In this document: positions 1 to 32,000 of the stretch, one piece after another
How positions within the stretch are numbered: the stretch's first letter is position 1
How the letters are laid out: each line of letters starts with the position of its first letter
Source of the DNA: Candidatus Saccharimonas sp.
GTDB taxonomy: Bacteria; Patescibacteriota; Saccharimonadia; Saccharimonadales; Saccharimonadaceae
Reading direction: 5' to 3'
Length of the DNA stretch: 32,000 nt
NCBI GenBank assembly: GCA_015256915.3
Contig: CP076101.2
Coordinates: 60,001 to 92,000 of the forward strand
Notes under the pieces: model-generated
The model's input: only the letters and a program-made list of their open reading frames with translations
What the model was told of the DNA's origin: nothing
Databases searched by the model: none
Position numbers and translations under genes: made by a program

Positions 1-417
1 ACAGGCGATCCTGAAGGTGAGATTTCGAAATGTGAGAATTTTGAAATTCCAACTTTTGAACATATTGAAAAAGAAATTAAAACTAACTTTTTAGGCAAAA
101 TTGAACAAACTCCACCAGCTTTTAGTGCAATCAAAATTGATGGTAAGCGTGCTTATGATTTGGCGCGAAAGGGCGAGGATTTTGAAATTCCTAAACGCAC
201 GGTTAAAGTTTTTAATTTCGAAATTTTAAGTTATGATTTTCCAAAACTAAAAGTTCGCACACATGTTTCAAGTGGAACTTACATTCGTTCGCTGGCAGAA
301 GATTTAGGTAAGAATTTGGGTTGTGGTGCGTTTTGTTCGCAACTTCGGCGCACAAAAATTGCTGATTTCAACATTTCGAAAGCTAAAAAGCTTGAAGATT
401 TTGGAATTTTAGATTAG
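1..417 (+). CDS. truB: tRNA pseudouridine(55) synthase TruB, C-terminal part (5' end upstream of window)
   Basis: Frame 1 is open from base 1 to TAG 415-417. The translation contains QTPPAFSAIKIDGKRAYDLARKGE and SSGTYIRSLAEDLG, typical TruB core motifs. The track ORF 160-417 is only the part after an internal Met. Confidence 0.85.
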   Translation, partial: TGDPEGEISKCENFEIPTFEHIEKEIKTNFLGKIEQTPPAFSAIKIDGKRAYDLARKGEDFEIPKRTVKVFNFEILSYDFPKLKVRTHVSSGTYIRSLAEDLGKNLGCGAFCSQLRRTKIADFNISKAKKLEDFGILD

Positions 418-441
418 TTTTTTGCTTATCCTGCCAAAAAA

Positions 442-450
442 TGATATAAT
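442..450 (+). promoter_or_regulatory. extended -10 promoter TGATATAAT, 7 nt upstream of the orn ATG (leaderless)
   Basis: TGnTATAAT match. No SD fits between it and ATG 458. Confidence 0.6.
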
Positions 451-457
451 TTAAATA

Positions 458-1006
458 ATGAAAAACGCAAAAATTCTTTGGATTGATTTAGAAATGACTG
501 GTCTTGAACCTAAAAAAGACCGAATTTTAGAAGTTGCCGCGATTGCAACAGATTGGGATTTTAATGAAATTGCCACTTTCGAAAGTGCCGTAAAAGTTGA
601 AAATGAAATTCTCGAAAGCCGAATGGTTGGCGATTTTTGGGATACTTTTAGCGAAACGCGCGATGCTTTAAAAATGCAAAATTCTCATGCTACTAAAAAT
701 TCACAAGAAGTTGAAGCGGACTTAATTAAATTTGTAGAAGAAAACTTTGCTGAAGAAATTTTGAAAGCCGAGAAAATTCTTTTGGGTGGAAATTCAATTC
801 ACCAAGATCGCCGATTTATTCGTGCAGAATGGAAAAGACTTGAAAAAATGTTGCATTATCGAATGCTGGATGTTTCGGCGTGGAAAGTTGTGATGAGTGC
901 TAAATTTAAACGTGTTTTTGCTAAGCCTGAAAATCACCGTGCGTTAGATGATATTCGTGGCTCGATTGAAGAATTGAAATTTTATTTAAAAAAGGTGAAA
1001 AAGTAA
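458..1006 (+). CDS. orn: oligoribonuclease (DEDDh 3'-5' exoribonuclease)
   Basis: Motifs WIDLEMTGL, GNSIHQDRRF and HRALDDIRGSIEEL. Length of about 180 aa is typical of Orn. Confidence 0.85.
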   Translation: MKNAKILWIDLEMTGLEPKKDRILEVAAIATDWDFNEIATFESAVKVENEILESRMVGDFWDTFSETRDALKMQNSHATKNSQEVEADLIKFVEENFAEEILKAEKILLGGNSIHQDRRFIRAEWKRLEKMLHYRMLDVSAWKVVMSAKFKRVFAKPENHRALDDIRGSIEELKFYLKKVKK

Positions 1007-1431
1007 TGGATCAGAGTGAAATTAAAGATTTTTTGCTGAATTTTGATGCGGCAGAAGTTCGGAAAGATGAAGAAAATAAACTTGAAATTTTCGAAGTTAA
1101 TTTTGATAAATTAGAAAAAATTTGGCAAGAAAAAATGGCTGGCGATCTTGGCGATTTTGAACGTGAAACTGGTGAAAAGATTCTTTCGAAAATTACAGAA
1201 GGTGAAGAGCCGAAAGCAATTTTTGCAATCATTCACGATGGTTCAAAACCTTTAAAAGTTGAAATGAAAACAGGCACGCAGCTTGCTAGGATTTTACGTG
1301 AAAAAGAAAGTGTAGTACCTTCGAAGTTGATGAGTGAGCGTGAGTGGAATTTGATTATTGGCCAAGGACAAGTTTCGGCTGAAGAATTGCGAGATTTGCT
1401 TCGCTTGAGTTATCGCTTGGTTTGCGAGTAA
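1006..1431 (+). CDS. hypothetical acidic protein, start overlaps the orn stop (TAATG)
   Basis: 141-aa ORF with SD-like AAGGTG upstream. No family recognised. Confidence 0.5.
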   Translation: MDQSEIKDFLLNFDAAEVRKDEENKLEIFEVNFDKLEKIWQEKMAGDLGDFERETGEKILSKITEGEEPKAIFAIIHDGSKPLKVEMKTGTQLARILREKESVVPSKLMSEREWNLIIGQGQVSAEELRDLLRLSYRLVCE

Positions 1432-1467
1432 AATGTATTTTGTAGTTTATCTTTTAGATAGGAATAG

Positions 1468-1490
1468 CCTTGCAAAAAGCGGGGTTTTTC
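1468..1490 (+). terminator. weak rho-independent terminator
   Basis: CCTTGC-aaaaa-GCGGGG stem (two G-U pairs) followed by TTTTT. Confidence 0.4.
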
Positions 1491-1511
1491 TTTGCGAAAA
1501 AAACTTTTTTG

Positions 1512-1520
1512 TGATATAAT
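1512..1520 (+). promoter_or_regulatory. extended -10 promoter TGATATAAT
   Basis: Lies inside the 5' extension of track ORF 1492-2499, 10 nt upstream of ATG 1531. Confidence 0.6.
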
Positions 1521-1530
1521 CATAAGTAAT

Positions 1531-2499: not shown

Positions 2500-2510
2500 T
2501 TTCCTGAAAC

Positions 2511-2556: not shown

Positions 2557-2562
2557 ATAGAC

Positions 2563-14362: not shown

Positions 14363-15412
14363 ATGATTAATATTAAAGGTGTGGGCGATTTCTTCTCGTT
14401 AGATATTGGAACAAATGCGATTCGTGCTGTCCAGCTTTCGAAAGCTGGAGAGAATTCTTGGAATTTGGTTGGCCTCGGTTATACACCAGTCGACCCTCAA
14501 TTGGTTTTGAGTAATTCGGATGAAAGCCGTCGTCGTTTGGGGGAAATTATCTCAACAATGATCGGACAGAGCGATATTAAAACAAAAAATGTAGCGATTA
14601 GTCTTACGTCCCAGAAGACATTCACGACAATTTTCGAAGTACCAAAACAGGATATGAGAGAATTACAAAAAAACATAAAATATCAAGTTGATCAGTATAT
14701 TCCAATGGCGGTTGATGACGCTCAAGTCGACTGGGCTCTTCTTGGAGAATCTCCTTCTAACCCTGATTCATTGGAGATTTTACTTGCAAGTACAGCTAAA
14801 ACTTATAGTGAAGAAAAGATGGAATTTATTGAAGGTCTAGGCTTGAATGTAGTTGCGAGCGAACCTGATTCTTTAGCAATGACTCGTGCTTTATTTATGC
14901 CTAACCAATCCGATCAGGCTCAGCTAATTATTGATATGGGTGAGCTTTCTACTGATTTATCTATTGTATATCAAGGTGTTCCAAGGCTTGTTCGTACAAT
15001 TCCTACTGGAATATCAAGCTTGGTGAAATCTGCTACTCAAAATTTGAATATTAAAGAAGATCAAGCTCGACAATTTATTATGAAATTCGGCTTAGCCCAA
15101 GATAAACTAGAGGGTCAGGTTTTTAGAGCTATCGAAATGACTCTTGAGAATTTCGTTCAAGAAATTGCTAAATCAATAAAATTTTTAGGAACAAAATACC
15201 AAAATGCTCAAGTTGGGGTAATTTCACTTTCAGGATTTTCTGGAATTATTCCACAAATGCCAGAATATGTTTCTTCGAAAACTGGAATTCAGTCTTATTC
15301 CGCAAATCCTTTCCAAAATATTAATGTTCCTGCGAAATATCAGCAGCAGATTGCAGGTGTTGGAAATGAATTTGCGGTCGCTGTCGGTTTAGCTGAAAGG
15401 AGTAACAAATAA
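14363..15412 (+). CDS. pilM: type IV pilus assembly protein PilM (actin-like ATPase fold)
   Basis: N-terminal FSLDIGTNAIRAVQL. About 350 aa. Directly followed by pilN. Confidence 0.8.
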   Translation: MINIKGVGDFFSLDIGTNAIRAVQLSKAGENSWNLVGLGYTPVDPQLVLSNSDESRRRLGEIISTMIGQSDIKTKNVAISLTSQKTFTTIFEVPKQDMRELQKNIKYQVDQYIPMAVDDAQVDWALLGESPSNPDSLEILLASTAKTYSEEKMEFIEGLGLNVVASEPDSLAMTRALFMPNQSDQAQLIIDMGELSTDLSIVYQGVPRLVRTIPTGISSLVKSATQNLNIKEDQARQFIMKFGLAQDKLEGQVFRAIEMTLENFVQEIAKSIKFLGTKYQNAQVGVISLSGFSGIIPQMPEYVSSKTGIQSYSANPFQNINVPAKYQQQIAGVGNEFAVAVGLAERSNK

Positions 15413-16179
15413 TGATTGAAATTAACCTTTTGCCAGATGTTAAACGCGATCTTATTAAAGCTCAGCAACTTCGAAATATAGTTACTTTCGTATCTATAAT
15501 TATTGGTGGTGTGATGCTTGCTGGAGTGGTTTTATTGTTCTTAACAACTCAAGGTCAGCAATTTGTTATGGGCTTAAAAACCAATGATATCTCAAACAAA
15601 TTTGCTGAGATGCAAAAAATTAAAGATGGGGAAACAGCGGCTACTCTTCGAAATCAGCTTAATGCAATTCAAAAAATTAGAAATGCTTCGCCAGATACCT
15701 CACGATTGATCGGAACAATTCTACCGGCAATTCAGACTACCGGTGAAAACGCTGTTCAGTTTTCTTCAGTGAATTACGACCCTGAAACTCGAATCGTTTC
15801 AATTGAAGGTCAAGCAAGTAATGGTTTTCCAGCCCTTGAAGCTTTTATTAAAACAATTAAATATTCACAAATTATCTATGATGGTGAAGGCTCTCAATGT
15901 AAGGCTAGTGAAGTCGAAAAAGATGCTAATATCTGTATGCTTGCTGATGAAGGGTCAGTTGTTCGAAATGAAAGTTCGCTTGGAGCTAATGAACAAGGCC
16001 AAAATGTTTTGCGTTTCACTGTTAGCTTTAAATTGAACGAAGCAGCTTTGAAATTTTCTTCGAAAAACTTTGCGGTAAAAGCTCTTGGTCGAAAGAATGT
16101 AACAGACTCAACTATTCAGGTTCCTGCTGGAATTTTTACTCAAAATTCAAAAAAAGATTCTGAAAAGGAGAATAAATAA
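15412..16179 (+). CDS. pilN: PilN-like pilus assembly protein
   Basis: N-terminal MIEINLLPD signature, then one TM helix. TAATG coupling to pilM. Confidence 0.65.
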   Translation: MIEINLLPDVKRDLIKAQQLRNIVTFVSIIIGGVMLAGVVLLFLTTQGQQFVMGLKTNDISNKFAEMQKIKDGETAATLRNQLNAIQKIRNASPDTSRLIGTILPAIQTTGENAVQFSSVNYDPETRIVSIEGQASNGFPALEAFIKTIKYSQIIYDGEGSQCKASEVEKDANICMLADEGSVVRNESSLGANEQGQNVLRFTVSFKLNEAALKFSSKNFAVKALGRKNVTDSTIQVPAGIFTQNSKKDSEKENK

Positions 16180-17045
16180 TGGGTGAAAATAAAGAAGTAG
16201 CTTTTTTGAAGCGAAATGCCATTAATAAGGCTAACCAAACAATGTTTTTGGCGGTTGCGGGCGCTGCTTTAATTGCTGGCGCATCTGTTGTTGGAATGAT
16301 TTATCTTTTTAGGATTTTTACATTTAATTCTAAAGTTCTTGGTGAACAAGATAAAAGTATTTCAACAATTCAAAAAAATATCCAAAATATTGAAGATTTA
16401 AAGAGTAAGTTAAGTTCATTAGAAACCGATCCGAATCTTAATGAGCGAAAATTGAAATCTAATGCCGAAGATGGTGGTTTGCGCGTTATTGCTGATGCCT
16501 TGCCTGATAGCGAGAATGCTGCCGCTCTTGCAGCTAGCCTTGAAAAGAATATTTTTTCTGAAGGCGTAACTCTTGATTCTTTTAGTATTGACTCTGCTGA
16601 TTCTGCAAACAAAAGTCTTTCAGGTTCAAGCTCAGCGTCAAATTCTTCTAGTTCATCAGTAACTAGCGGTGTTCAAGATTCAAATAAAATTCCAGAAGGT
16701 GTGAAAGATATTCAATTTTCAGCAACAATTTCTGCAGGTTTTCAGGGTGAAGGCTCAAATTCAGCGCGAGTCGCTAAATCTCAAGATGAAGCACTTAATA
16801 ATCTAATTAATACTGTTCGAAAGATGGAAAGATCAATTCGATCAATAAATATTACGAGTTTTAAATTCGAGCGTTCACTTAACCGATTTAGTCTTAACTT
16901 TTCTGCGAAATCCTACTATTATCCTAAATATACAATGAAGCTTGAAAGTAAGAAAGTTAAAGCAGACGAAACTGCAAAGCCAGCAACTTCTACAACTGGA
17001 ACTGGTAAAACTCAAAACTCAAGCACTACGGGAGGATCGAAATAA
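16179..17045 (+). CDS. PilO-like bitopic membrane protein with Ser-rich linker (assignment by position and topology only)
   Basis: N-terminal TM, predicted coiled-coil segment, SGSSSASNSSSSS linker. Sits between pilN and pilB. Confidence 0.4.
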   Translation: MGENKEVAFLKRNAINKANQTMFLAVAGAALIAGASVVGMIYLFRIFTFNSKVLGEQDKSISTIQKNIQNIEDLKSKLSSLETDPNLNERKLKSNAEDGGLRVIADALPDSENAAALAASLEKNIFSEGVTLDSFSIDSADSANKSLSGSSSASNSSSSSVTSGVQDSNKIPEGVKDIQFSATISAGFQGEGSNSARVAKSQDEALNNLINTVRKMERSIRSINITSFKFERSLNRFSLNFSAKSYYYPKYTMKLESKKVKADETAKPATSTTGTGKTQNSSTTGGSK

Positions 17046-17263
17046 TGAAAAAAACTGATATTGCGATGATTGTTTTGATTGCGGGCTTTAGCGTTTTGAT
17101 TTCATATTTAGTTATTAACTCTTTGGCTCAGGGTGGATTTTCTGAGCAAACTTATGATGTTAAAATTACTGAACCAATTTCGAACGAATATGTAAAACCA
17201 AGTAGTGAAATTTTTAATAAGGATGCTATCAATCCAACGGTTCAAGTTAATATTGGACAATAA
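17045..17263 (+). CDS. small single-TM protein in the pilus operon
   Basis: 72-aa ORF. SD GGGAGG upstream. TM IAMIVLIAGFSVLISYLVI. Confidence 0.45.
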   Translation: MKKTDIAMIVLIAGFSVLISYLVINSLAQGGFSEQTYDVKITEPISNEYVKPSSEIFNKDAINPTVQVNIGQ

Positions 17264-17290
17264 ATATTAAATAATTCAAAAAGGAATGTA

Positions 17291-19060
17291 ATGACATTAT
17301 TAACCAATGATATTCAGGATAGACTTGCGAAAATCCTTGTTGAAGAGGGTCTTATTCAAGAATCAAAAATTGAGTTGGCTATAAAAGAGGCTGGTTTAAA
17401 TAATCAGTCTCTAATGTCGTATATGATTGAGCATAAGTTTCTTGATAATGAAATTCTTATTCACGCAACAGCTCATGTTTCGGGGATTCCCTATGTTAAT
17501 CTTGAAAATACTACCATTCCGCAAGAGACTCTTGATTTAATTTCAGTTGATATTGCTGAACGAAATATGGCGGTTCCAATTGCTGAAGTTCAGGGGCGAA
17601 TTGCTGTTGCAATGCTTGATGCAACAAACATTCAAGCTGTTGATTATCTTTCTAGTCTAATTCAGCGCCCTCTAAAAGTATTTATGGCGAGCCAAAAATC
17701 AATTAGGCATATTTTAGACCAATATAAAACTGATCTTTCCGGTGTTGATGCTCTGGCTGAAAATGTTGATGCGCAAACTCAGGCGGAAGCAGAATCGAAA
17801 CGGCAGGTTCAAACAATTGTGCAGGACTCACCGATTTCGAAAGCTTTGAATACAATTTTAGAATATGCTGTTCGCGCAAAAGCATCCGATATCCATATTG
17901 AACCACTTGAAAAATCTTTGAAAATTCGCTGTCGAATAGATGGTGTTCTTCGAGAAATTATGAATTTGCCAAAGAGTATTGAGCCGGCTTTAATTTCACG
18001 TATTAAGATTCTCTCAAGCTTAAAGATCGATGAGCACCGCGTACCGCAAGATGGTCAGTTTGCTGTTGCTGTTGGAGATAAAGAAGTTGACCTTCGTATC
18101 GCTATTTCGCCAGTTGTTTGGGGTGAGCAAGTCGTGATTCGTTTGCTTGATAAAACGGGTAATTCTTTTAATCTTGAAGAAATGGGATACGCCGGGCGAG
18201 CTCTTCGAACAATTCGAAAGGGAATTGCTGCTCCAAATGGAATGGTTTTAACATCTGGTCCAACTGGTTCTGGTAAATCAACATCGCTTTACGCATTGAT
18301 TAAAGAGATTAAAGATGATTCGGTGAATATTATTACTCTCGAAGACCCTGTTGAATATAAGATGGATGGCGTAAATCAGATTCAAGTTAATGCTGAGGTT
18401 GGATTAACTTTTGCAGCGGGATTGCGTTCTATTTTGCGTCTTGACCCTGATATTGTGATGGTTGGAGAAATTCGTGATGGTGAAACAGCCAACCTCGCCG
18501 TTCAGGCCGCATTAACTGGACACTTAGTATTTTCAACACTTCACACCAACTCTGCTGCCGGAATTTTGCCTCGCTTGATTGATATGGGGATTGAACCTTT
18601 CTTGATCGCTTCAACAGTGAATACAATTATTGGTCAGCGTCTTGTTCGAAGGGTTGCGGCCAAGCGAAATACTTATCAATCTTCACCACTTGAAACGCAA
18701 AGTATTATCGATACTGTAGGTCATTTGCTGCCAAAAACACCAGATGAAGTAGAAAGAGTTTCAGCTGACTTAGGCTATAAAAATCTACCTCTTGCAAACC
18801 AGAAGTCTTACACTCTTGTGAAAGGTCGTGATACACCGCAAACGCCAGGAGGATACAAAGGGCGTGCAGGTTTGTATGAAGTTATGGAGGTAACCGAAGA
18901 AATTCAACAGCTTATCATTAAGCATGCAACTTCACACGAGGTTCAGAAGGTAGCAATGGCGCAAGGAATGATTACAATGCGTCAAGATGGATATCTTAAA
19001 GCTTTAACAGGAATTACAACATTAGAAGAAGTTAATAGGGTTGCGTCTGATAGCGCATAA
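17291..19060 (+). CDS. pilB: type IV pilus assembly ATPase PilB (GspE family)
   Basis: GspE N-terminal domain, Walker A GPTGSGKST, His box GHLVFSTLHTN. Confidence 0.9.
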   Translation: MTLLTNDIQDRLAKILVEEGLIQESKIELAIKEAGLNNQSLMSYMIEHKFLDNEILIHATAHVSGIPYVNLENTTIPQETLDLISVDIAERNMAVPIAEVQGRIAVAMLDATNIQAVDYLSSLIQRPLKVFMASQKSIRHILDQYKTDLSGVDALAENVDAQTQAEAESKRQVQTIVQDSPISKALNTILEYAVRAKASDIHIEPLEKSLKIRCRIDGVLREIMNLPKSIEPALISRIKILSSLKIDEHRVPQDGQFAVAVGDKEVDLRIAISPVVWGEQVVIRLLDKTGNSFNLEEMGYAGRALRTIRKGIAAPNGMVLTSGPTGSGKSTSLYALIKEIKDDSVNIITLEDPVEYKMDGVNQIQVNAEVGLTFAAGLRSILRLDPDIVMVGEIRDGETANLAVQAALTGHLVFSTLHTNSAAGILPRLIDMGIEPFLIASTVNTIIGQRLVRRVAAKRNTYQSSPLETQSIIDTVGHLLPKTPDEVERVSADLGYKNLPLANQKSYTLVKGRDTPQTPGGYKGRAGLYEVMEVTEEIQQLIIKHATSHEVQKVAMAQGMITMRQDGYLKALTGITTLEEVNRVASDSA

Positions 19061-19072
19061 AACGGGAGGAAT

Positions 19073-20140
19073 ATGAATCAAAATCTAAGAATAGAAATTT
19101 TACTTGAAGAAATCGTTCGAAAAAATGCAAGCGATCTTCATCTGCAAGTTGGTTTGCCGCCGATGATGCGGCTTGATGGCGTTTTGGCGCCATTCCCAGG
19201 ATACAATCCATTGAATGCCGAAGAAGTTGAGCATCTTGTTTTTGCAATCCTTGATGATGATCAGCAAAAAATTCTAATTAAAGATAAAGAATTCGACTTC
19301 TCATTTGCCTTTGGTGATTTGGGCCGTTTTCGTGTTAATGCTTTTCATGAACGCGGTAATTTAGCAGCTTCACTTCGTTTAATTCCAAATCAAATCAAAA
19401 CTATTACTGAGCTTGGAATGCCGCCAGTAATTCAGTCTTTTGCCGATTTTCCGCGTGGTTTAGTTTTAGTTACGGGGCCAACTGGTTCAGGAAAATCTAC
19501 AACTCTTGCCGCTTTGATTGATAAAATTAACAGCGAAAAAGCTCAGCATATCATTACAATTGAAGATCCAATTGAGTTTACGCATAAATCAAAACGCTCA
19601 GCGATTGTTCAGCGAGAGGTTCATTATGACACCTACTCATTTTCTGCGGCTCTTCGAAGTTCGCTTCGTCAAGATCCAGATGTTGTTTTAATTGGTGAGA
19701 TGCGTGATCTTGAAACAATCTCGGCTGCAATTACAATTGCTGAAACTGGGCACTTAGTGTTTGCAACGCTTCACACAAACTCTGCAGCGCAATCAATCGA
19801 CCGTATGATTGATGTTTTTCCGCCACACCAACAACCTCAAGTTCGTTCGCAACTTGCTAATATTCTGCAAGGAATTTGTGCTCAACGACTTATTCCTGCA
19901 ATTGGCGGTGGGCGAGTTGTTGCAGCCGAAGTTATGGTTGCCAACCCTGCAATTCGAAATATTATTCGTGAAGGAAAAACTCATCAGCTTGATACTGTTA
20001 TTCAAACTGGATCCGACCAAGGGATGCAGACAATGGACAGAACGCTTGTTAAATTAGTACAATCTGGTGTGGTAACTTATGACGATGCACGCGAATTTGC
20101 GGTTGATTTAGTTGAATTTGAAAGGTTGATGAGAGGCTAA
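19073..20140 (+). CDS. pilT: twitching-motility retraction ATPase PilT
   Basis: 355 aa. ASDLHLQVG, Walker A GPTGSGKSTT, GHLVFATLHTNSA, AIRNIIREGK. Confidence 0.9.
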   Translation: MNQNLRIEILLEEIVRKNASDLHLQVGLPPMMRLDGVLAPFPGYNPLNAEEVEHLVFAILDDDQQKILIKDKEFDFSFAFGDLGRFRVNAFHERGNLAASLRLIPNQIKTITELGMPPVIQSFADFPRGLVLVTGPTGSGKSTTLAALIDKINSEKAQHIITIEDPIEFTHKSKRSAIVQREVHYDTYSFSAALRSSLRQDPDVVLIGEMRDLETISAAITIAETGHLVFATLHTNSAAQSIDRMIDVFPPHQQPQVRSQLANILQGICAQRLIPAIGGGRVVAAEVMVANPAIRNIIREGKTHQLDTVIQTGSDQGMQTMDRTLVKLVQSGVVTYDDAREFAVDLVEFERLMRG

Positions 20141-20141
20141 T

Positions 20142-21347
20142 ATGAAAAAATTTTCTTATAAAGTAAAAGATCGTGTTACTGGTAAAATCATTAAAGGCGA
20201 AATTTCAGCAGATAGTCAGCGTGCGGCTGGAAAAGCTCTTATTGATCAAGGCTATATTTTGCAAGATGATATTTATGAAGTCGGCCAAGAAAACGCTTTG
20301 GCGAGGTTTATGAACCGAATCACAACTAAGGATAAAATCGTCTTCACTCGTCAGTTCGCTACTTTGATTGGTGCAGGTTTACCTCTTGCGCAGGCTCTTC
20401 GAACAGTTTCTGAGCAAACTGAAAATAAAAAAATGCGTTCAGTTGTTGATGATATTTTAGCTTCAGTTGAAAGTGGCTCAATCTTGAAAGATGCTTTTTC
20501 GAAATTTCCAGATGTTTTTGATAAAGTTTATCTTGCTTTGATTGCTGCTGGTGAAATGTCGGGAACACTTGATGAATCGCTTCGCCGTGTTGCAACTCAG
20601 CAGGAAAAAGACGCGGCAATGATGAGTAAGATTCGTGGAGCTTTAACTTACCCAGTAATTGTGCTTGTGGTTATTGGTCTCGTGATGACGTTTATGATGG
20701 TGCAGGTTGTTCCTCAAGTTAAACAGCTCTATAAAGATATGCACCAAGAATTGCCATTTGCAACACAAATTCTTATTGGAATATCAGACTTTATAATCAA
20801 CTTTTGGTGGCTTGTTTTGGTCGGAATAGGTGTTGCTGGTTATTTCTTCCGCCAATATCTTAAGACAGGGTCAGGGATTAAATTTGCGGCAAACTTCAAG
20901 CTTAACGTGCCACTTTTTAGCCCGCTATTTCGAAAGCTTTATATGGCGCGATTTGCAAGAACTGGTCAGCTTTTGCTTTCAACTGGTGTGGCACTACTTG
21001 ATATGCTCAATATTTGTGGTGATGCAATGAATAATATTATTGTGAAAAAAAGTATTGATGAAGCCGGAAAACTCGTTCAAAGCGGTAAAAGTCTTTCAGA
21101 ATCTTTAAAGGGTAAAGATTATATTTTGGATATGGTGCCACAAATGATTAACATTGGTGAGCAATCTGGTAAAATTGATGAAATGCTTGGCAAAACCGCA
21201 CAGGTTTATGAAGATGAACTTGATGAGCAAATTAAAGCTATTTCAACCTTGATTGAGCCAATCTTGATGGTTGTGATGGCATTGATGGCGGGTGGCTTGA
21301 TTGGTGCAATTTTATTCCCAATTTACTCGCTAGTTACAAAAGTCTAA
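20142..21347 (+). CDS. pilC: pilus platform protein PilC (T2SS-F family)
   Basis: 401 aa. Duplicated GspF-type domain, three TM helices. Confidence 0.9.
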   Translation: MKKFSYKVKDRVTGKIIKGEISADSQRAAGKALIDQGYILQDDIYEVGQENALARFMNRITTKDKIVFTRQFATLIGAGLPLAQALRTVSEQTENKKMRSVVDDILASVESGSILKDAFSKFPDVFDKVYLALIAAGEMSGTLDESLRRVATQQEKDAAMMSKIRGALTYPVIVLVVIGLVMTFMMVQVVPQVKQLYKDMHQELPFATQILIGISDFIINFWWLVLVGIGVAGYFFRQYLKTGSGIKFAANFKLNVPLFSPLFRKLYMARFARTGQLLLSTGVALLDMLNICGDAMNNIIVKKSIDEAGKLVQSGKSLSESLKGKDYILDMVPQMINIGEQSGKIDEMLGKTAQVYEDELDEQIKAISTLIEPILMVVMALMAGGLIGAILFPIYSLVTKV

Positions 21348-21367
21348 TTTTTCGAAAGGAAGAGAGA

Positions 21368-22270
21368 GTGGAGAATTTTCTATTAAGTTTAATTTGTGGT
21401 GTAATCGGTGCCGTTTTGGGTAGTTTTTCGGTTGCCCAAGTTTGGCGAGTGCGCGCAAAACAACTTCAAGAAGAGAGAGAGTCTGGTAAAAAAGTTGATT
21501 CTACTGAATGGAAAAAACTCCGCTCTTTGGTTTCGGTTAAAACAAAAAAAGACCGCTCGCATTGTTTGAACTGTAATTATCAACTAAAATGGTTTGATTT
21601 AATTCCGATTATCTCTTGGCTTTCACTTGGCGGAAAATGTCGTAAATGCTGTTCAAGAATCGGCTCGCTTGAATTTTTCTCTGAAATTTTAATGTTTGCA
21701 CTTTTTGTAATTATTTTCTTGATTTTTAACCCAATTTCGAATGGCACAGTTTTAGTTTTGCCAGCAATTAGACTTTTCATTTTATTAATTTCTCTGGTTC
21801 CGCTTGCAATTATGCTTATTTATGATGCTAAGTGGTCACTTTTACCAACCAAACTTCTATATATTTTCAATATTTTAGCATTTATTTATTGGGCAACTGG
21901 ATTTTTGACGGTTTCTGGTGGATTTAATTTGAGATCCATTTTTTACTTAGTAATTTCAATGATGTTCTTCCCGTTGATCTATTTTGTACTTGCAAAAATT
22001 TCGAAAGAGCAATGGGTTGGTGGTGGTGACTGGATTTTGGCGGTTGGCTTGATTTTTCTTTTACCAAATCACCCAGTCTTTGCGATTTTTCTACTTTTCC
22101 TTTCAAATGTTGTGGGCTTGGTTTTTGCAGTTTTTCAATCTATCTTGCATTTTCGAAAAGTTAAACGTGGAACACAAATTCCATTTGGCCCAGCAATGAT
22201 TTTAGCAGCTTTAATTTTGTTAGCTTTTCAACAGCAAATTTTGGTATTTTTTGTCAATTTAATAATGTAA
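21368..22270 (+). CDS. pilD: prepilin peptidase (A24 family)
   Basis: GTG start with SD GGAAGAG. N-terminal CLNCNYQL...CRKCCSRI. Asp motifs IYDAKW and GGGDWIL. Confidence 0.9.
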   Translation: MENFLLSLICGVIGAVLGSFSVAQVWRVRAKQLQEERESGKKVDSTEWKKLRSLVSVKTKKDRSHCLNCNYQLKWFDLIPIISWLSLGGKCRKCCSRIGSLEFFSEILMFALFVIIFLIFNPISNGTVLVLPAIRLFILLISLVPLAIMLIYDAKWSLLPTKLLYIFNILAFIYWATGFLTVSGGFNLRSIFYLVISMMFFPLIYFVLAKISKEQWVGGGDWILAVGLIFLLPNHPVFAIFLLFLSNVVGLVFAVFQSILHFRKVKRGTQIPFGPAMILAALILLAFQQQILVFFVNLIM

Positions 22271-22284
22271 AAATAAAAAGCTTA

Positions 22285-22293
22285 TGGTATAAT
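22285..22293 (+). promoter_or_regulatory. extended -10 promoter TGGTATAAT, 10 nt upstream of ATG 22304
   Basis: Sequence match. The AGGAG at 22294-22298 would only be transcribed by read-through from pilD. Confidence 0.5.
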
Positions 22294-22303
22294 AGGAGAA
22301 AAT

Positions 22304-23371
22304 ATGGAAAACTTTATGATGAAAAAAGCTTTTACAATTATTGAAGTAATACTTGTTTTGGGTATCTCTGGCTTGATGTTGGCGACTATGCTTGTTGGAT
22401 GGAATGCCAGTATTGAAAAACAGCGCTATAATGATTCGGTGAATACTTTTAAGTCAGATATTCAAGGTGTGTTTTCGGATGTAGAAAATCAAACTAACGA
22501 TAAGGGTTCTACAAAAATTAAATGTGACACGTCTGGCGCAAATATAAGTATTTTAAAAGATAATAGCGGCAATTTAACGGGGTCAAGCAATTGTGTTATA
22601 CTTGGAAAGTATATTTCTTTATATAATGGAAATGTTATTCCTGGGAATGAAAATGCAACTCTTGGACAAGAGCGATTTAGGGTTTTTGATGTTATAGGAA
22701 AAGATATAGATATATCAAAGGATTGTCGGGCAATAGATGAGAATGGCAAATTTCATGGTGATTTAAGAGAATGTAGAAACAGCATAGAGGCTTTACGTGC
22801 AACAAAGTTTGTTCTTGATGGTGGTAAGAATAGTGTAAAAGGCCCAAAGGATATAGAGTTGCAATGGCGCGGAACATATAAAAATGTTACAGATAATAGG
22901 ATAACTAGTGCTAGTGGGATACGGGCATTCAGCTATAAAAGTGCAGTTACCTCAATAACGAGTGGCGATAGTAAGTGGCATGGTTTAGATACGATCACTG
23001 GTGTTTTAATATTAAGGTCTCCTATTGATAATTCAATAATTTCTTTCGGTACTTCAGCAATGATAGAACATGGCTCTCTTGATAATGATGGCCTTATAGC
23101 CGCTTTTAGAGATATAAATGTGAATAGTGATTTTGTTATTAAAAATGGAAAAACAGTTAATGTTTGCGTTCGACCTTCTAACGACGGAGTACAGTGGTAT
23201 GCTGGCGGTTTCAATTTCTTCGGCGATAGAAATAAAGTTGTAAAAATTGGACCTTCGGCTTCTGCCGTTGAAATCGCGCCTCTTGACGGTCCTAAGGGCT
23301 CTTCTTGTGGAGGCGATAGAAAGGGTGATGCAAGATTTGGTGATGTAATAATTGATGGAAAGAATTTATAA
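22304..23371 (+). CDS. large pilin-like protein (class III signal peptide KKA/FTIIEV)
   Basis: N-terminus MENFMMKKAFTIIEVILVLGISGLMLATM carries the conserved Glu at +5. 355 aa. Confidence 0.7.
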   Translation: MENFMMKKAFTIIEVILVLGISGLMLATMLVGWNASIEKQRYNDSVNTFKSDIQGVFSDVENQTNDKGSTKIKCDTSGANISILKDNSGNLTGSSNCVILGKYISLYNGNVIPGNENATLGQERFRVFDVIGKDIDISKDCRAIDENGKFHGDLRECRNSIEALRATKFVLDGGKNSVKGPKDIELQWRGTYKNVTDNRITSASGIRAFSYKSAVTSITSGDSKWHGLDTITGVLILRSPIDNSIISFGTSAMIEHGSLDNDGLIAAFRDINVNSDFVIKNGKTVNVCVRPSNDGVQWYAGGFNFFGDRNKVVKIGPSASAVEIAPLDGPKGSSCGGDRKGDARFGDVIIDGKNL

Positions 23372-23982
23372 TGAAATTTCGAAAAGGTGATACATTAATT
23401 GAAGTGCTTCTTGCTATTGCTGTTTTTGCAACTGTAATGATGATTGGGTTGACCGCAATGAATAATGGAATGTCGCGTGCACTAGCAAGTTTGCAGCTTA
23501 CTATGGCGCGAAATGCTATGGATACTCAAGCGGAAGCTTTGCGTTTTGCTAATGCGGCGTTTATTTCTGAATATCGTGCAGATAGTTCAGAAGTTTCAAG
23601 TCCTGCGGCAGAATTATGGAAAAATAGCTTAACGAAAGACGCTCAAGGCTCAGCAACCCCGCTTGGGGAGTGTAGTCGAGGTTCAAGTGCTTTTGTTATC
23701 TCAACAAGAGATATGGTGACGAATCGTGGTTATCATAATGAAAAAATAGTTAATGCAATAACTTATCCACGAATTGCTTATGGTGATGATAAAGATAATA
23801 ATGCGAACTGGCTACGTGATGATCTTCCTTATAGAAGTGCGCAAGGTATTTGGGTTGAGAAAGTCCATGCTCCAAATACGAAATATTATGATTTTCATAT
23901 TCGTGCATGTTGGTCTGCGCCAGGAACTAACGTAAAAACAACTCTTGGAACGATTGTGAGGTTATATGACCCAAGGAGCTAA
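23371..23982 (+). CDS. pilin-like protein (RKG/DTLIEV)
   Basis: N-terminus MKFRKGDTLIEVLLAIAVFATVMM with Glu at +5 after Gly. Confidence 0.6.
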   Translation: MKFRKGDTLIEVLLAIAVFATVMMIGLTAMNNGMSRALASLQLTMARNAMDTQAEALRFANAAFISEYRADSSEVSSPAAELWKNSLTKDAQGSATPLGECSRGSSAFVISTRDMVTNRGYHNEKIVNAITYPRIAYGDDKDNNANWLRDDLPYRSAQGIWVEKVHAPNTKYYDFHIRACWSAPGTNVKTTLGTIVRLYDPRS

Positions 23983-24640
23983 AAAAGGTTTTACGATTAT
24001 GGAATTAATGCTAGCAATGGGCGTGATTGCATTTTTGCTCGTTGGTGTTGCTGGCTTAATTATTCAAATGACGAATACAATTACTCGTGGTACAACTTAT
24101 AAAGATTTAAACACTGCTGCTCGTACAATTAATACAGATTTTACTAAGACTTTTAATTCTTCGCCAATGCTTGATGATTGGAATGGCGGTGTTGATGGTA
24201 AATTTTATAAATCTACTGGTGCGGCTGGCGCATTTTGTACTGGAACCGTGAGCTACTTGTGGAATATAGGAGATGGAAGACGGATAGTTTTCGATGATAT
24301 TAGTGCCGTTAAATTAGTAAAAGTTCGCGATACTGCTAGATCTTATTGCGCTGATGGTGCCGAAAATACAATTTGGCGAAGGGTGCCTCGTGACAACAAT
24401 GTTACAGAAATCCTAACTGGCGGTGAAATTGATCTTCGACTACACGGAATTAATTTTTCAACCTCGCCTAATTTAAAAAATAGTGCATCAAACCAAATGA
24501 TCGTTAATATTTCTTATATTTTAGGAACACCGAACAACGGTGATATAGATGTAAGCACGTATAATTGTGAAGGGAATATTAAAAGTAATTATTGTGCAGT
24601 TAATAGATTCGATTTAACTGTTCGAACTCTTGGCAGATAA
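23966..24640 (+). CDS. pilin-like protein (canonical KKG/FTIMEL)
   Basis: N-terminus MTQGAKKGFTIMELMLAMGVIAFLL. Confidence 0.75.
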   Translation: MTQGAKKGFTIMELMLAMGVIAFLLVGVAGLIIQMTNTITRGTTYKDLNTAARTINTDFTKTFNSSPMLDDWNGGVDGKFYKSTGAAGAFCTGTVSYLWNIGDGRRIVFDDISAVKLVKVRDTARSYCADGAENTIWRRVPRDNNVTEILTGGEIDLRLHGINFSTSPNLKNSASNQMIVNISYILGTPNNGDIDVSTYNCEGNIKSNYCAVNRFDLTVRTLGR

Positions 24641-24668
24641 AAAGTGGCTTTCGAAAGCCACTTTTATT
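24640..24668. terminator. bidirectional terminator, perfect palindrome AAAAGTGGCTT-TCGA-AAGCCACTTTT
   Basis: 11-bp arms with A/T runs on both sides. Lies between the convergent pilin gene and the recombinase gene. Confidence 0.85.
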
Positions 24669-26289: not shown

Positions 26290-26805
26290 ATGAAAGAACA
26301 AATTTTTAAAGGTCAAAGAGAAGGCGAAGAATTTCTCTTTATGTTTCGAAAGCATATCATTGCAATGCGAAAGGGTTTTTACCTTTTTTTGGGCGTTTTT
26401 GCGATTTCTTGTTTGCCAACATTTTTTATGCTAACATCAGATAGTCTAATGGATGCGCTCTGGATTGCTTTTGGTGGATTTATTGTTGGTTTAATTTTAT
26501 TTTTTTATCAATTCATGCTTTGGTATTATTCTCTTTATATTGTTTCGAATGAGCGGATTCGCCAGATTACACAAAAAGGCTTTTTTGGGCGAAAAATGAT
26601 GGACTTACCGCTTTCGAAAATTCAAAGTGTTAATTTTGAAATCCCAGGTTTTTTTGGTGAAATTTTCCATTTTGGAACAATCAATATTTTTACAATTGTG
26701 GGTGATTTAGAAATTAAAAATGTTGAACATCCAGAAGAGATTTATAATAAAATTCAAGATGCGATTTCGAAAGTTGAAATGGAGGGAGAAAATGAAGAAT
26801 ATTAG
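26290..26805 (+). CDS. membrane protein with bacterial PH (bPH_2/DUF304-like) domain
   Basis: Two TM helices, then YSLYIVSNERIRQITQKGFFGRKMMDLPLSKIQSVNFE, which resembles the YdbS/YdbT bPH domain. Confidence 0.5.
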   Translation: MKEQIFKGQREGEEFLFMFRKHIIAMRKGFYLFLGVFAISCLPTFFMLTSDSLMDALWIAFGGFIVGLILFFYQFMLWYYSLYIVSNERIRQITQKGFFGRKMMDLPLSKIQSVNFEIPGFFGEIFHFGTINIFTIVGDLEIKNVEHPEEIYNKIQDAISKVEMEGENEEY

Positions 26806-27841
26806 AGAGAAAGCTAAAAAAATTAGAGATAAGGTTTCAAAAAAACCTGAATCTCACGAAAGCCAGATTGCAAAAATTACAAATACGACACTTGAAGAAC
26901 AGCGTCGTGAGATTTTAAATAAGGGTAAAAAATTTAAATATCCTGTGCAGTATAGCAAAAATCGTTTAGTGATTAACGCCTTAATTATTGCTGGTGTAAT
27001 ACTGATTACGGGTGCGAGCTTGCTTTGGTATCAGCTTTATCAAGCTCAAAATACCAGTGAGTTTGTTTATCGTTTTACGACTATATTTCCATTTCCAGTT
27101 GCAAAAGTTGATGGTGAGAAAGCACTTTATAGTGATTATTTAATGGAATATCGGGCAAATATGCAAATTGCAAATGCCAAAAAAGATGAAATTGAAGGAG
27201 CGAATAATATAAGCGCACTTTCAACTCTAAATAAATCAAAAGCAATGAAAAATGCAATCGCAAATGCTTATGCCCAAAAGAAGGCTCGTGAACTTGGAAT
27301 TTCAGTTTCAGATAAAGAAATTAGCGAAGCTTTTGATGCACAGCGAAAAATACAAAATACCGAGCTTACTGAAAGCGCTTTATATAAGATTGCGGCTGAT
27401 AATTATAGTCTTTCGCCAAGTGAATATCGCCGAATGTTCATTGAGTTGCCACTACTTCGCCGAAAAGTGACTGCACAAATTGACAAAACGGCTGAAAGCC
27501 TTAAAAATGATGTTTCAAAATATTTAAGTGAAAATGCAAATAATTTTTCGAAGGCTGTTGAACATTTTGGCGATAAAATTGAATACGCAAAACCCGGAAA
27601 AGTTCGAAAAACTAACATTGATGGTGGTCGTTCTAAAATTGCGGCAGGATTAAAAGTTGGTGAAGTTTCGGAACCATTTATTTCAAACTCGGGTGATGGC
27701 TATTACATAGTTAAATTGATTGAAAAAACTGATAATGAAGTTAGTTATGAATCGATAAAAATTAAATTTACCGAGTTTAATAAACAACTTGAGCAGCTCG
27801 AAAAAGACGGTAAGATTCAAAAATATATTAAAGTTGACTAA
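26792..27841 (+). CDS. membrane-anchored SurA-N/PpiC (parvulin)-like chaperone candidate
   Basis: Start moved to ATG 26792 (SD GGAGGGAG). One TM. C-terminal GEVSEPFISNSGDGYYIVKLIEK resembles a parvulin-type segment. Weak recognition. Confidence 0.45.
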   Translation: MKNIREKAKKIRDKVSKKPESHESQIAKITNTTLEEQRREILNKGKKFKYPVQYSKNRLVINALIIAGVILITGASLLWYQLYQAQNTSEFVYRFTTIFPFPVAKVDGEKALYSDYLMEYRANMQIANAKKDEIEGANNISALSTLNKSKAMKNAIANAYAQKKARELGISVSDKEISEAFDAQRKIQNTELTESALYKIAADNYSLSPSEYRRMFIELPLLRRKVTAQIDKTAESLKNDVSKYLSENANNFSKAVEHFGDKIEYAKPGKVRKTNIDGGRSKIAAGLKVGEVSEPFISNSGDGYYIVKLIEKTDNEVSYESIKIKFTEFNKQLEQLEKDGKIQKYIKVD

Positions 27842-27936: not shown

Positions 27937-28014
27937 TTGGCGCGCCCGACCGGATTCGAACCGGCGATCTCCTCCGTGACAGGGAGGCGTACTAGGCCAA
28001 CTATACCACGAGCG
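27937..28014 (-). tRNA. tRNA-Asp (anticodon GUC), CCA encoded
   Basis: The reverse complement folds as acceptor GCGCTCG/CGGGCGC, anticodon stem CCTCC/GGAGG with loop cTGTCac, T arm GCCGG-TTCGAAT-CCGGT. Confidence 0.85.
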
Positions 28015-28032
28015 CATCAGTAGACTAATACA

Positions 28033-28188: not shown

Positions 28189-28200
28189 ATTTATTTTTTT

Positions 28201-30260: not shown

Positions 30261-30261
30261 G

Positions 30262-30288
30262 TACTCTGAAAAGGGTATTTTATTTTTT
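30262..30288 (+). terminator. rho-independent terminator after the GT2 gene
   Basis: TACTCT-gaaa-AGGGTA (one G-U pair, GNRA-type loop) followed by TTTTATTTTTT. Confidence 0.6.
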
Positions 30289-30479
30289 GGCTTAATATTC
30301 ATGAAATTTAAAAGCGGCCAATTTGACCGCCTGATGTAGGAGCATTTGTAAGATTTTCTTAAACCTTACCAAAAAATCGTTTGTCGTTTGGGTGACAAAA
30401 GGGAATGTGCCAATATGAATGTAACAGAGGATTACTAGAAAAACTTTCATTTTTTATAGTTTTTTATTTGCCCAAACCT

Positions 30480-30519
30480 GATTAGACTTTTTCCGAAGTC
30501 TAATCTCGTTTTTTATTTT
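30480..30519 (+). terminator. strong rho-independent terminator with no ORF upstream of it
   Basis: GATTAGACTT (30480-30489) pairs with AAGTCTAATC (30496-30505), 10 bp, followed by TCGTTTTTTATTTT. Confidence 0.75.
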
Positions 30520-30588
30520 ACAGCGTTTTATTTAAAAAAGCAAGCATAATTACGATATTGAGTGTCTTTTTTTTGAAAGTTAAAAATT

Positions 30589-30665
30589 TTGTTCGCTTTT
30601 TAATAAAATTGAGTTTTTGAAAATAAAACATTTCACACGAAAGTCAAACTCAAAAAAGCGAACAA
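30589..30665. repeat. imperfect inverted repeat
   Basis: TTGTTCGCTTTTT..TGAGTTT (30589-30617) against AAACTCAAAAAAGCGAACAA (30646-30665). Read directly. Confidence 0.7.
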
Positions 30666-30840
30666 CCCAAAATAAATATCTCACCAAATGAATAAAAATT
30701 TTCGAAAGCTAAAAACCAGCTTGTGGAAAAGCTTTGATGGAATGTGTAAAACTAAAAACACCATAACGCTATATGTAGTTAAGAAAAAAAGAACAAAAGT
30801 TGTAAAATCTATTGAGTTTTTTGCAAAGAAGTTGGTTTTT

Positions 30841-30849
30841 TGATATAAT
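30841..30849 (+). promoter_or_regulatory. extended -10 promoter TGATATAAT, about 210 nt upstream of the methyltransferase start
   Basis: Same consensus as the other promoters in the window. Confidence 0.55.
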
Positions 30850-30853
30850 GATA

Positions 30854-31059
30854 GTGTTCTAAAATATTATAAATATAAAGCAGACTTTCGAAAAAGTTAT
30901 TTTTTGCGTATTTGAGCCTTAGATAGGGCACTCTACGCGAATCATATTTTGTTGGCTCAATTGGGTCTGCTATAAATATTTTAGAACACTTCGCAAGGAG
31001 TGTCCTATTTTATTTATAGTAAAAATGAAAATCCTTTTTCGAAAAAGAAAGGATTTTTC
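30854..31059 (+). promoter_or_regulatory. long structured 5' leader or cis-regulatory RNA candidate
   Basis: 15-bp perfect helix 30854-30868/30975-30989, extended by 30880-30885/30965-30970. Inner helix 30912-30918/30954-30960. Interleaved helix 30923-30941/30990-31008. Hairpin 31028-31037/31048-31057 covers the SD-like AAAGGA. Confidence 0.5.
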
Positions 31060-32000
31060 GTGGCGAATAAAAATCTCACACGAGCAAAAAAGGTCAAAAA
31101 TGATGAATTTTATACACAATACGATGATATTGAGAAGGAGTGTGAAAGGTATCGTGACCAATTTTATGGCAAAATAATTTACTGTAATTGCGACGACCCT
31201 GAAAATAGTAATTTCTTCTTATATTTTGCGAATAATTTTAAGTTTTTTGGCTTAAAGAAACTTATAACCACTCATTATGATTCTGAAAGGCCAACTTATA
31301 AACTGGAACTAACAGAAGAAATGATTGAAGACGGCGCCGTAACTGCTGAATGTGCCAAGAAAACTCTGCTCAAGGGTAACGGAGATTTTCGCAATCAAGA
31401 GAGTATTAAATTATTAAAAGAAGCCGATATAATCATAACTAATCCACCGTTTTCACTTTTTAGAGAATATATCGCTCAATTGATTAAGTATGGAAAGCAA
31501 TTTTTAATTATGGGAAATAATAACTCAATCACCTATAAAGAGATTTTTAAATTAATAAAAGAAAACAAAATTTGGCTTGGTTATGATGTTAATAAAACTA
31601 TGGAGTTTGCTTTAAGTGATAGTTATGAGAAATGGAGTCGTATAGAAAATGGTGTAAAGTATGGAAAAGTTCCTGCAATATCTTGGTTTACGAATCTTGA
31701 AACAGATAAACGCCATCAGGAGTTGATTTTATATAAAAAATATACCGCTGAAGAATTTCCGAAATATGATAATTATGACGCAATTGAAGTTTCGAAAGTT
31801 GTTGATATTCCGCAAGATTATGACGGTGTTATGGGTGTACCAATTACTTTTCTTGATAAATTCAATCCAGATCAATTTGAATTAATAGGCTCTAATCGTT
31901 GGGTTGGTCAAGACGAAGACGGAGTGTATGGTAGAAGTTCGTATTTGAATGGAAAAGAAACTTTTAAAAGGCTATTTATAAAGAATAAGAAAGTGAGTAA
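31060..32000 (+). CDS. N6-adenine DNA methyltransferase, EcoRI-methylase-like family (3' end beyond window)
   Basis: Hand translation is open from GTG 31060 to the window end (313 codons, no stop). N-terminal RAKKVKNDEFYTQYDDIEKE and YCNCDDPENSNFF. Catalytic DIIITNPPF (motif IV). VMGVPITFLDKFNPDQFEL. Absent from the ORF track because it has no in-window stop. Confidence 0.75.
   Translation, partial: MANKNLTRAKKVKNDEFYTQYDDIEKECERYRDQFYGKIIYCNCDDPENSNFFLYFANNFKFFGLKKLITTHYDSERPTYKLELTEEMIEDGAVTAECAKKTLLKGNGDFRNQESIKLLKEADIIITNPPFSLFREYIAQLIKYGKQFLIMGNNNSITYKEIFKLIKENKIWLGYDVNKTMEFALSDSYEKWSRIENGVKYGKVPAISWFTNLETDKRHQELILYKKYTAEEFPKYDNYDAIEVSKVVDIPQDYDGVMGVPITFLDKFNPDQFELIGSNRWVGQDEDGVYGRSSYLNGKETFKRLFIKNKKVS

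Follow-up and report, generated by a model that had tools for sequence, protein, structure and literature searches.

The palindrome TTCGAA is hyper-abundant, and subject to a currently active directional force, in the oral Saccharibacteria clade G6

We report here that the short palindrome TTCGAA is the object of a directional force acting on the DNA word itself in Saccharibacteria clade G6 (Candidatus Nanogingivalaceae; HMT-870) of the human mouth. The force is lineage-specific and currently active: losses of the word are purged and gains are favoured. The DNA analysed, hereafter the window, is a stretch of 32,000 nucleotides from this clade (GenBank assembly GCA_015256915.3, contig CP076101.2, positions 60,001 to 92,000). 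Clade G6 is uncultivated (PMC8354532), and the genome of its strain JB001 measures 662 kb with 36.4% GC. Among the papers that were searched, on clade G6 and on methylation in Saccharibacteria, none mentions a TTCGAA excess.

TTCGAA occurs 101 times in the window, against 10.7 copies expected from the base composition (A.326, T.315, G.204, C.154), an observed-to-expected ratio (O/E) of 9.5; the octamer TTTCGAAA occurs 44 times against 1.1 (O/E 40). These are the most over-represented words among all 6-mers and all 8-mers of the window, respectively. An initial annotation, made from the letters of the window, had estimated about 100 and about 44 copies against expectations of about 10 and about 1, and the exact counts bear out all four figures, as well as the positions that it quoted (22-30, 217-222, 4796-4804, 24650, 30887 and 31038). 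It had further claimed that the excess is specific to the full palindrome. This holds, with the two half-sites clearly coupled: AA follows TTCG in 101 of 232 instances, compared with 145 of 931 for CG without a preceding TT. Of the two side counts given in support, TTCGAB (20 copies) is near the 19 stated, whereas VTCGAA amounts to 26 and not to about 16. Outside the core, the logo of window sites is informative only for T at -1 (64%) and A at +1 (62%). The same flanking preference is found throughout the clade (60% and 58% in coding DNA, 75% in non-coding DNA), and the preferred unit is TTTCGAAA, the core plus flanking T/A. Because no flank is conserved past +/-1, TTCGAA is not a dispersed repeat element, and an origin from repeats or from miniature inverted-repeat transposable elements was ruled out.

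Low-order sequence context contributes to the abundance of the word, the analytic Markov expectation being 22 at order 1, 37 at order 2 and 50 at order 3, still well short of the 101 copies observed. An expectation of order 4 or higher (89) is uninformative because it is derived from TTCGAA's own 5-mers. Coding nulls were computed on the 31 called genes (Pfam annotation), which contain 90 sites. The initial annotation had named a codon-preserving null as a check, and the excess persists under four of them: 22.1 sites are expected from a pooled synonymous shuffle, 27.6 from a per-gene synonymous shuffle, 18.0 from codon permutation and 33.0 from a dinucleotide-preserving third-position shuffle (z = 11-18). 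For TTTCGAAA, 35 genic copies stand against 2.4-9.6 under the same nulls. Other palindromes score far lower in the per-gene synonymous null (TTGCAA, z = 5.8; AAGCTT, z = 4.1). The sites are distributed over all three codon phases, as had been annotated, with 11 read as TTC/GAA, 31 as xTT CGA Axx and 47 as xxT TCG AAx, and 12 further copies outside called genes; the 3' end of truB, a gene that runs off the window, holds those at 24, 217 and 375. Density is 3.2 per kb in coding and 3.0 per kb in non-coding DNA, with a mean spacing of 318 bp. In the window's species this spacing is more even than random (coefficient of variation 0.68-0.79, P <= 0.01 in two of three stretches), a pattern that was not seen in the other enriched species tested. 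Even spacing would favour a coverage-type function, and since it is significant in the window's species only, we do not treat it as a property of the clade.

Some other words also depart from expectation. TTGCAA is a second over-represented palindrome, with 50 copies (4.7-fold over composition), in the window's species only, its O/E in other G6 lineages being 1.36, and AAGCTT lies about 2-fold above the codon-aware null. In the pooled clade loci several palindromes are avoided in a clade-specific manner (O/E of 0.24 for GTAC, 0.25 for ACGT, 0.36 for CTAG and 0.46 for CCGG; TACGTA 0 observed and 16.9 expected), as are the non-palindromic words GACA, ACAGTC and GAGACA. The avoided words are probably footprints of other restriction systems.

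The manner in which TTCGAA is accommodated in genes is visible in the choice of codons. Serine is encoded by TCG in 47 of the 77 xxT_Ser_AAx contexts, against 13% of serines without a following AA; arginine by CGA in 32 of the 38 xTT_Arg_Axx contexts, against 15% where the first base of the next codon is not A; and phenylalanine by TTC in 11 of 23 instances before GAA, against 67 of 405 elsewhere. Heavy use of CGA and TCG is seen only where the motif can be written, which makes it a consequence of the motif and not its cause. Amino-acid contexts in which TTCGAA can be written synonymously are occupied in 49% of cases in the window and in 35% in other species of the clade (17-55%), compared with 3-7% in relatives. 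The permissive contexts themselves (Phe-Glu; Phe, Ile, Leu or Val followed by Arg and a codon starting with A; x-Ser followed by Lys or Asn) are 30-40% commoner per kb in the clade, and protein sequences have therefore shifted too. When 51 sites were codon-aligned to the closest unenriched relative, 22 of them lay on identical amino acids and differed by 1-4 nucleotides, with examples such as serine switches from AGT to TCG and changes from AGG or CGT to CGA. Recoding of this extent, serine switches included, cannot be accounted for by a single-nucleotide bias. TTCGAA has been written into genes via context-dependent synonymous recoding plus some amino-acid replacements, and into non-coding DNA at equal density.

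The excess has a sharp boundary within the phylum. Comparison loci were PilB-centred, were drawn from GTDB genomes and JGI/ENA metagenomes and were all from Saccharibacteria. Contigs from many human samples match the window at 94.8-99.99% identity, and the independent assemblies agree on the excess. TTCGAA O/E is 7.8-9.5 in strains of the same species and 4.2-12.9 in five further species-level lineages (about 68-80% nucleotide identity), and at least six species-level G6 lineages are thus enriched 4-13-fold. Pooled values are 9.27 for the window's species (49.8 kb) and 7.98 for other clade members, in contrast to 0.97 for 42 related loci with GC below 0.43 (682 kb). Across about 150 other Saccharibacteria loci, including 13 with GC <0.40, the median O/E is near 1, and O/E is 0.6 in the closest relative identified beyond the clade, whose PilB is 82% identical. 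Equal frequency in unrelated genomes of the same composition, which the initial annotation had named as grounds for rejecting its claim, is not what these loci show. A moderate excess was observed in a few distant, non-G6 Saccharibacteria loci (L079, 4.2; L143/L142, 3.3/2.6; L119, 3.2). CG itself has an O/E of 1.43 in L079, and the moderate excess may reflect general CpG richness or an independent, weaker version of the phenomenon. A search of IMG/VR with pairs of TTTCGAAA for phage or mobile DNA sharing the enrichment returned chance-level matches only and no homologue of the methyltransferase or nuclease described below.

Sequence variation between and within species indicates that the force still operates. 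Between the window and its sister species (80% identity), 34 of 62 sites are conserved (55%), compared with 28% for average hexamers, and 28 and 26 sites are lineage-specific; in the L181 lineage, in which O/E reaches 12.9, 29 of 56 sites are private. Polymorphism was scored in about 15 strains of the window's species, aligned on window positions 7.3-32 kb. Here 12 of 63 TTCGAA sites are polymorphic (19%), whereas the share is 36.5% among hexamers in general and 51% among the other NNCGNN hexamers (P = 6e-7). Judged against per-base polymorphism rates matched for context, variants that destroy a site number 11 instead of 38.5, while variants that create one number 18 instead of 4.9, an excess of about 4-fold. 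The creating variants comprise 12 from TTTGAA/TTCAAA (2.9 expected) and 6 at non-central positions (about 0.6 expected), and about half of the alternates at polymorphic sites are TTTGAA and TTCAAA, the products of CpG transition. Polarisation with outgroups yields about 17 gains against 13 losses, where the neutral ratio is about 0.13. A second species, the sister species, points in the same direction more weakly, with 16-22% of its TTCGAA sites polymorphic against 34% of CpG hexamers. The small number of polymorphic sites and the excess of creating variants show that selection or biased conversion is still acting: TTCGAA is held in dynamic equilibrium via selection or a transmission/repair bias and is not a fossil. 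Together with the codon-aware nulls and the context-dependent recoding, the polymorphism data strongly support what the initial annotation had inferred, namely that codon preference is insufficient and that a force at the DNA level is involved. Within the species, CpG transitions are polymorphic about 2.2-fold more often than other C/G positions (15% vs 6-7%), and rarely so where the CpG lies inside TTCGAA; this pattern may point to modified cytosine or to a mutational process specific to CpG.

A gene for an EcoRI-family (PF13651) DNA methyltransferase begins at position 31061. It runs off the 3' end of the window and is for that reason missing from the list of open reading frames on which the initial annotation relied, which overlooked it. 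Its NPPF catalytic motif marks an N6-adenine enzyme, and PADLOC assigns it to MTase_II (E = 7e-113). On longer contigs it is followed, 5 bp downstream, by a 364-aa DUF262+HNH protein that matches REase_II of PADLOC over its full length (E = 2e-142). Of the four mechanisms that the initial annotation had raised purely as possibilities (an uptake signal, the target of a solitary methyltransferase, a nucleoid site and a repair bias), the second needs correction: the only methyltransferase found is paired with this nuclease, which PADLOC places among the restriction enzymes of Type II. Wherever the interval was reached in an enriched lineage, the two genes are flanked by the same glycosyltransferase and thrS genes, and the interval with the operon contains 4-8 TTCGAA sites. 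The operon is under strong purifying selection (dN/dS 0.05-0.16, with saturated dS), comparable to that on threonyl-tRNA synthetase (ThrRS; 0.04-0.07). One G6 lineage (L182/L183 10001-12083; GCA_030530825.1, JAUMUF010000001.1) carries both genes in fragmented form, as pseudogenes, in two independent assemblies, and both its O/E (4.2) and its saturation of permissive contexts (17%) are the lowest observed in the clade. The same two-gene module is common on plasmids of many phyla. Among 11 plasmids with homologous pairs, two have zero or two TCGA sites, and these two avoid every 4-bp palindrome (TGCA, CATG, GCGC and CTAG all 0), so that nothing specific to TCGA emerges. As regards the specificity of the two enzymes, sequence searches of the PDB gave generic HNH matches only, and NCBIfam offers no family-level name.

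In our assessment, the closest known parallel is with the highly iterated palindromes (HIPs) of cyanobacteria, HIP1 (GCGATCGC) and the alternate HIPs, of which the G6 word is an analogue, not a further instance of HIP1. Both are short palindromes that are hyper-abundant in all frames and between genes, are restricted to particular lineages, are conserved at their sites above background, have originated by nucleotide substitution and not by transposition, and are found alongside a DNA methyltransferase gene (PMC4390886, PMC5861425). In cyanobacteria, each HIP is accompanied by a methyltransferase that can modify it (PMC4390886). The G6 word differs in that it is not GCGATCGC and in that its host is an episymbiont of the Candidate Phyla Radiation (CPR)/Patescibacteria with a genome of about 0.66 Mb. 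The word is rich in A+T around a central CpG, and if modified it would carry N6-methyladenine (m6A) and not 5-methylcytosine. Its enrichment, 9.5-fold for the 6-mer and 40-fold for the 8-mer, compares with 15-300-fold for HIP1, while its density of 3 per kb is higher. Furthermore, the only candidate methyltransferase of G6 has a nuclease partner and is not an orphan.

The DNA uptake sequences (DUS) of Neisseria and the uptake signal sequences (USS) of Pasteurellaceae resemble the G6 word in their density, of the order of one per kb (3.2 here), in being common to related species and tolerated in genes in all frames, and in the placement of a copy in a terminator hairpin; the gain-biased turnover fits molecular drive. 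DUS and USS are asymmetric and 9-12 bp long, whereas the G6 word is a perfect palindrome with information limited to 6-8 bp, and the pilus genes are not clade-specific. Saccharibacteria are not known to have an uptake bias or a receptor for an uptake word. Identity with a canonical DUS or USS was ruled out on account of the palindromic, 6-8 bp form of the word. In Campylobacter jejuni, methylated RAATTY is required for the uptake of self-DNA, and 28,482 instances of this motif have been tabulated for one C. coli genome. The CtsM/M.CjeNI system, which forms RA(m6A)TTY, likewise centres on a 6-bp palindrome of very high abundance; in G6, methylation of the word is hypothetical. CtsM is an orphan and its motif is abundant largely through an A+T-rich genome, whereas the G6 word contains a CpG, lies far beyond composition and has a candidate enzyme with a nuclease partner. 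We take the Campylobacter enzyme, first reported as specific for GAATTC, to be EcoRI-like and of the same family as the window gene. TTCGAA itself is a documented m6A motif elsewhere and is the target of Type II systems (BstBI/AsuII isoschizomers; M.SspP37I) that, as in G6, have adjacent methyltransferase and nuclease genes, although the G6 enzymes match them, as far as established, in neither family nor specificity. Hosts of these systems normally avoid the site, whereas G6 is about 9-fold enriched, and an ordinary restriction target is disfavoured because TTCGAA is enriched and not avoided. Finally, Dcm/Vsr very-short-patch repair in E. coli shapes the frequency of CCWGG and protects its central base pair from transitions. 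It illustrates how a repair-driven bias can raise the frequency of a methylated palindrome, but its effect is modest and the deamination products are depleted, whereas in G6 the excess is much larger, no depletion of those products is seen and each of the six positions shows gains.

We tentatively favour, as a possibility and no firmer than that, that TTCGAA is a HIP-like, methylation-linked and dense mark of 'self' that is read by a resident palindrome-recognising enzyme. We do so because cyanobacterial palindromes pair with methyltransferases, TTCGAA is a known m6A site, the operon tracks the trait and Campylobacter provides a precedent. Under this proposal an N6-adenine methyltransferase would mark the word as TTCGA-m6A, and the tag might be used in DNA uptake and recombination or in strand-directed repair; each additional TTCGAA would then bring a small advantage or be passed on preferentially. 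As candidate enzymes we consider the methyltransferase from 31061, which may recognise TTCGAA, and its DUF262/HNH partner. A more specific form, which we think unlikely, holds that a restriction-modification-like pair has been domesticated into a housekeeping reader of methylated TTCGAA, serving either as a MutH-like signal for strand-directed repair or recombination or as a self mark for pilus-mediated uptake. Several observations weigh against assigning the mark to these enzymes. The C-terminal half of the methyltransferase, presumably its recognition part, is a mosaic of unrelated segments among the enriched lineages, with at least three central and three terminal segment types (L174, L177, L179, L181 and L184). 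Even L177 and L179, strains of a single species, have different versions of it, and yet all lineages with divergent C-termini carry the same TTCGAA excess. The genealogies of the methyltransferase and the nuclease conflict with that of ThrRS, the closest sister species having the most divergent pair, which suggests allelic replacement at a fixed locus. In an unrelated genome, a homologous pair on a recombinase-bearing mobile island is accompanied by a TTCGAA O/E of 1.0. The co-distribution of operon and motif amounts to a single phylogenetic event, and the lineage with the fragmented operon has the lowest retention, with 6 of 37 sites (16%) against 8 of 30 (27%) in another lineage, a difference that is not significant and is confounded by phylogeny. 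Where a restriction nuclease is paired and apparently functional, its site is normally expected to be avoided, not enriched. In addition, the specificities named for the EcoRI family in the literature consulted have an AATT core (GAATTC first reported, RAATTY established), the GAATTC and RAATTY enzymes being presumably members of that family.

A second explanation, to which we give little weight, dispenses with methylation: as with DUS and USS, a pilus or competence protein would bind TTTCGAAA on incoming double-stranded DNA, and biased uptake with homologous recombination would spread new copies in the population as molecular drive. The density of about 3 per kb in all frames and in non-coding DNA, the sharing of the word by related species, the excess of gains with a deficit of losses, the even spacing in the window's species and the copy formed by a terminator palindrome are all in line with this idea. 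So is the low density in the fast-evolving pilin-like genes, which is the lowest in the window (0 sites in the 1068 bp of hyp355; 1.5-1.6 per kb in the pilin genes). The initial annotation had cited the type IV pilus genes in favour of a possible uptake signal, and a complete set with the PilT motor is indeed present in the window; the same machinery is, however, present in the roughly 150 unenriched Saccharibacteria loci, so that the presence of a pilus does not discriminate between the hypotheses. Against an uptake signal, too, are the length and asymmetry of the known uptake sequences, the only about 10-fold discrimination that a word of 6-8 bp affords, the lack of even spacing in other enriched species and the fact that no receptor was identified. 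A nucleoid-associated or chromosome-organising protein is a still weaker candidate and, in our view, an improbable one. A clade-specific dimeric protein of this kind would bind the word, and density would be selected for compaction or segregation. The palindrome suits a dimeric binder, the density is uniform over coding and non-coding DNA, the sites are under purifying selection, the preferred form of 8 bp exceeds the 6-bp core, and HIP1 has been suggested to play a structural part; the analysis identified no candidate protein, however, and nothing in the data points specifically to this reading.

It is rather unlikely, though less so than a nucleoid site, that the word is a functionless, neutral by-product of sequence-biased repair, either by a very-short-patch-like T:G correction in TTYGAA or by the methyl-directed mismatch-repair ratchet of Elhai, a model published for the cyanobacterial palindromes. 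Such a bias agrees with the share of CpG-transition products among the polymorphic alternates, with the surplus of creating variants derived from TTTGAA and TTCAAA and with the roughly 2-fold hypermutability of CpG transitions elsewhere in the species but not inside the motif; the methyltransferase and nuclease pair could provide the nicking step. In conflict with it, TTTGAA (49 copies) and TTCAAA (34 copies) are not depleted against composition (O/E 2.25 and 2.0), being only mildly low against a second-order Markov model (about 0.7-0.8), gains at outer positions also exceed expectation, and many sites required 2-4 coordinated nucleotide changes, serine codon-family switches included. No Vsr-like or MutH-like gene was found in the approximately 50 kb examined. 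Moreover, the sites are conserved between species at twice the background, the same argument that Xu et al. used for selection over replenishment in the case of HIP1. The simple version centred on the CpG, one form of the repair bias that the initial annotation had listed as an option, and with it the simple very-short-patch model, is disfavoured by the undepleted products, the outer gains and the coordinated changes. It is virtually inconceivable that base composition, the use of codons or dipeptides, or a family of dispersed repeats creates the excess as an artefact. Low-order context does raise the expected count about as far as half of that observed, and CGA and TCG are frequent codons; this account is nevertheless refuted by the four codon-aware nulls, by the confinement of CGA and TCG to the motif context, by the equal non-coding density, by relatives of equal GC without the excess, by the unconserved flanks and by the concordance of independent assemblies from many samples.

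The features of the window and the operon are listed in the table below. The palindrome AAAAGTGGCTTTCGAAAGCCACTTTT has a UUCG-type loop and overlaps the stop codons of both genes that converge on it, a pilin gene and xerC/D, between which it forms a bidirectional intrinsic terminator of classic type. The hairpin in front of the methyltransferase gene is only partly conserved upstream of orthologous genes, which makes a regulatory role for it (autoregulation of the methyltransferase) speculative and doubtful. The TTCGAA at 27955 is set apart from the phenomenon because the structure of the tRNA explains this copy; Rfam finds three tRNAs in the window and nothing else. The non-coding stretch at 30261-31060, 800 bp, is unusually long for a compact genome and may contain an unannotated small RNA or a gene remnant. 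Within it, at about 30969-31020, is a strong hairpin with a T-run (-20.3 kcal/mol, z = -4.9); it is also conserved in further species of G6 and has no match in Rfam. In the strain contig L085, positions 1-700 correspond to window positions 7264-8226 and hold a RecT gene and a small open reading frame beside ftsK, in the place of the holA of other strains, which suggests an insertion or rearrangement peculiar to this strain, with a phage or mobile element as its source. The SurA-like open reading frame (26720-27841) overlaps the preceding bPH gene (26290-26805) by 86 bp at its listed start; gene calls on sister contigs place the start about 70 bp later, near 26792, so that the true overlap is small.

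Table. Coordinates and properties of the features discussed (window positions unless a contig is named).
Feature	Location	Strand	Details
TTCGAA copies, dispersed	1..32000	.	101 copies; preferred extended form T-TTCGAA-A
Type IV pilus cluster	14363..24640	+	PilM, two unassigned open reading frames in PilN/PilO position, PilB, PilT, PilC, PilD, pilin-like genes
26-bp perfect palindrome AAAAGTGGCTTTCGAAAGCCACTTTT	24640..24665	.	centred on TTCGAA; RNA fold -20.7 kcal/mol, z = -5.9
tRNA-Asp gene	27938..28015	-	T-loop GGTTCGAACC supplies TTCGAA at 27955
Hairpin upstream of methyltransferase gene	31025..31061	+	apex in TTCGAA site, 3' arm over AAAGGA ribosome-binding site; -12.1 kcal/mol, z = -2.9
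EcoRI-family (PF13651) N6-adenine DNA methyltransferase gene	31061..32000, continuing past window end	+	GTG start, 314 aa, last codons and stop just beyond
Methyltransferase and DUF262/HNH pair in longer strain contig	L174:12489-14530		

In summary, hyper-abundant short palindromes are rare, and HIP1, the classic case, is to our knowledge still unexplained after 30 years. Clade G6 supplies an independent, HIP-like example in a very small, recombining, human-associated genome, with a sharp phylogenetic on/off boundary and with lineages that differ in enrichment, one of them with decayed candidate enzymes. Since nanopore reads of three complete G6 genomes (JB001, JB002 and JB003) are public, a link between methylation and the motif can be tested directly. 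The finding also illustrates that the choice among synonymous codons in a reduced genome, and even its dipeptide content, can be dictated by a force on a DNA word, and it is relevant to models of codon usage, to the binning of Saccharibacteria and k-mer taxonomy, and to the design of DNA for genetic manipulation. If a restriction-modification-like pair has indeed been domesticated as a reader of the word, selection on site density would have rewritten about half of the permissive codon contexts in a 0.66-Mb genome, and TTCGAA would represent the first 'genome watermark' with a function to be described from the Candidate Phyla Radiation, with an origin independent of the cyanobacterial HIPs.

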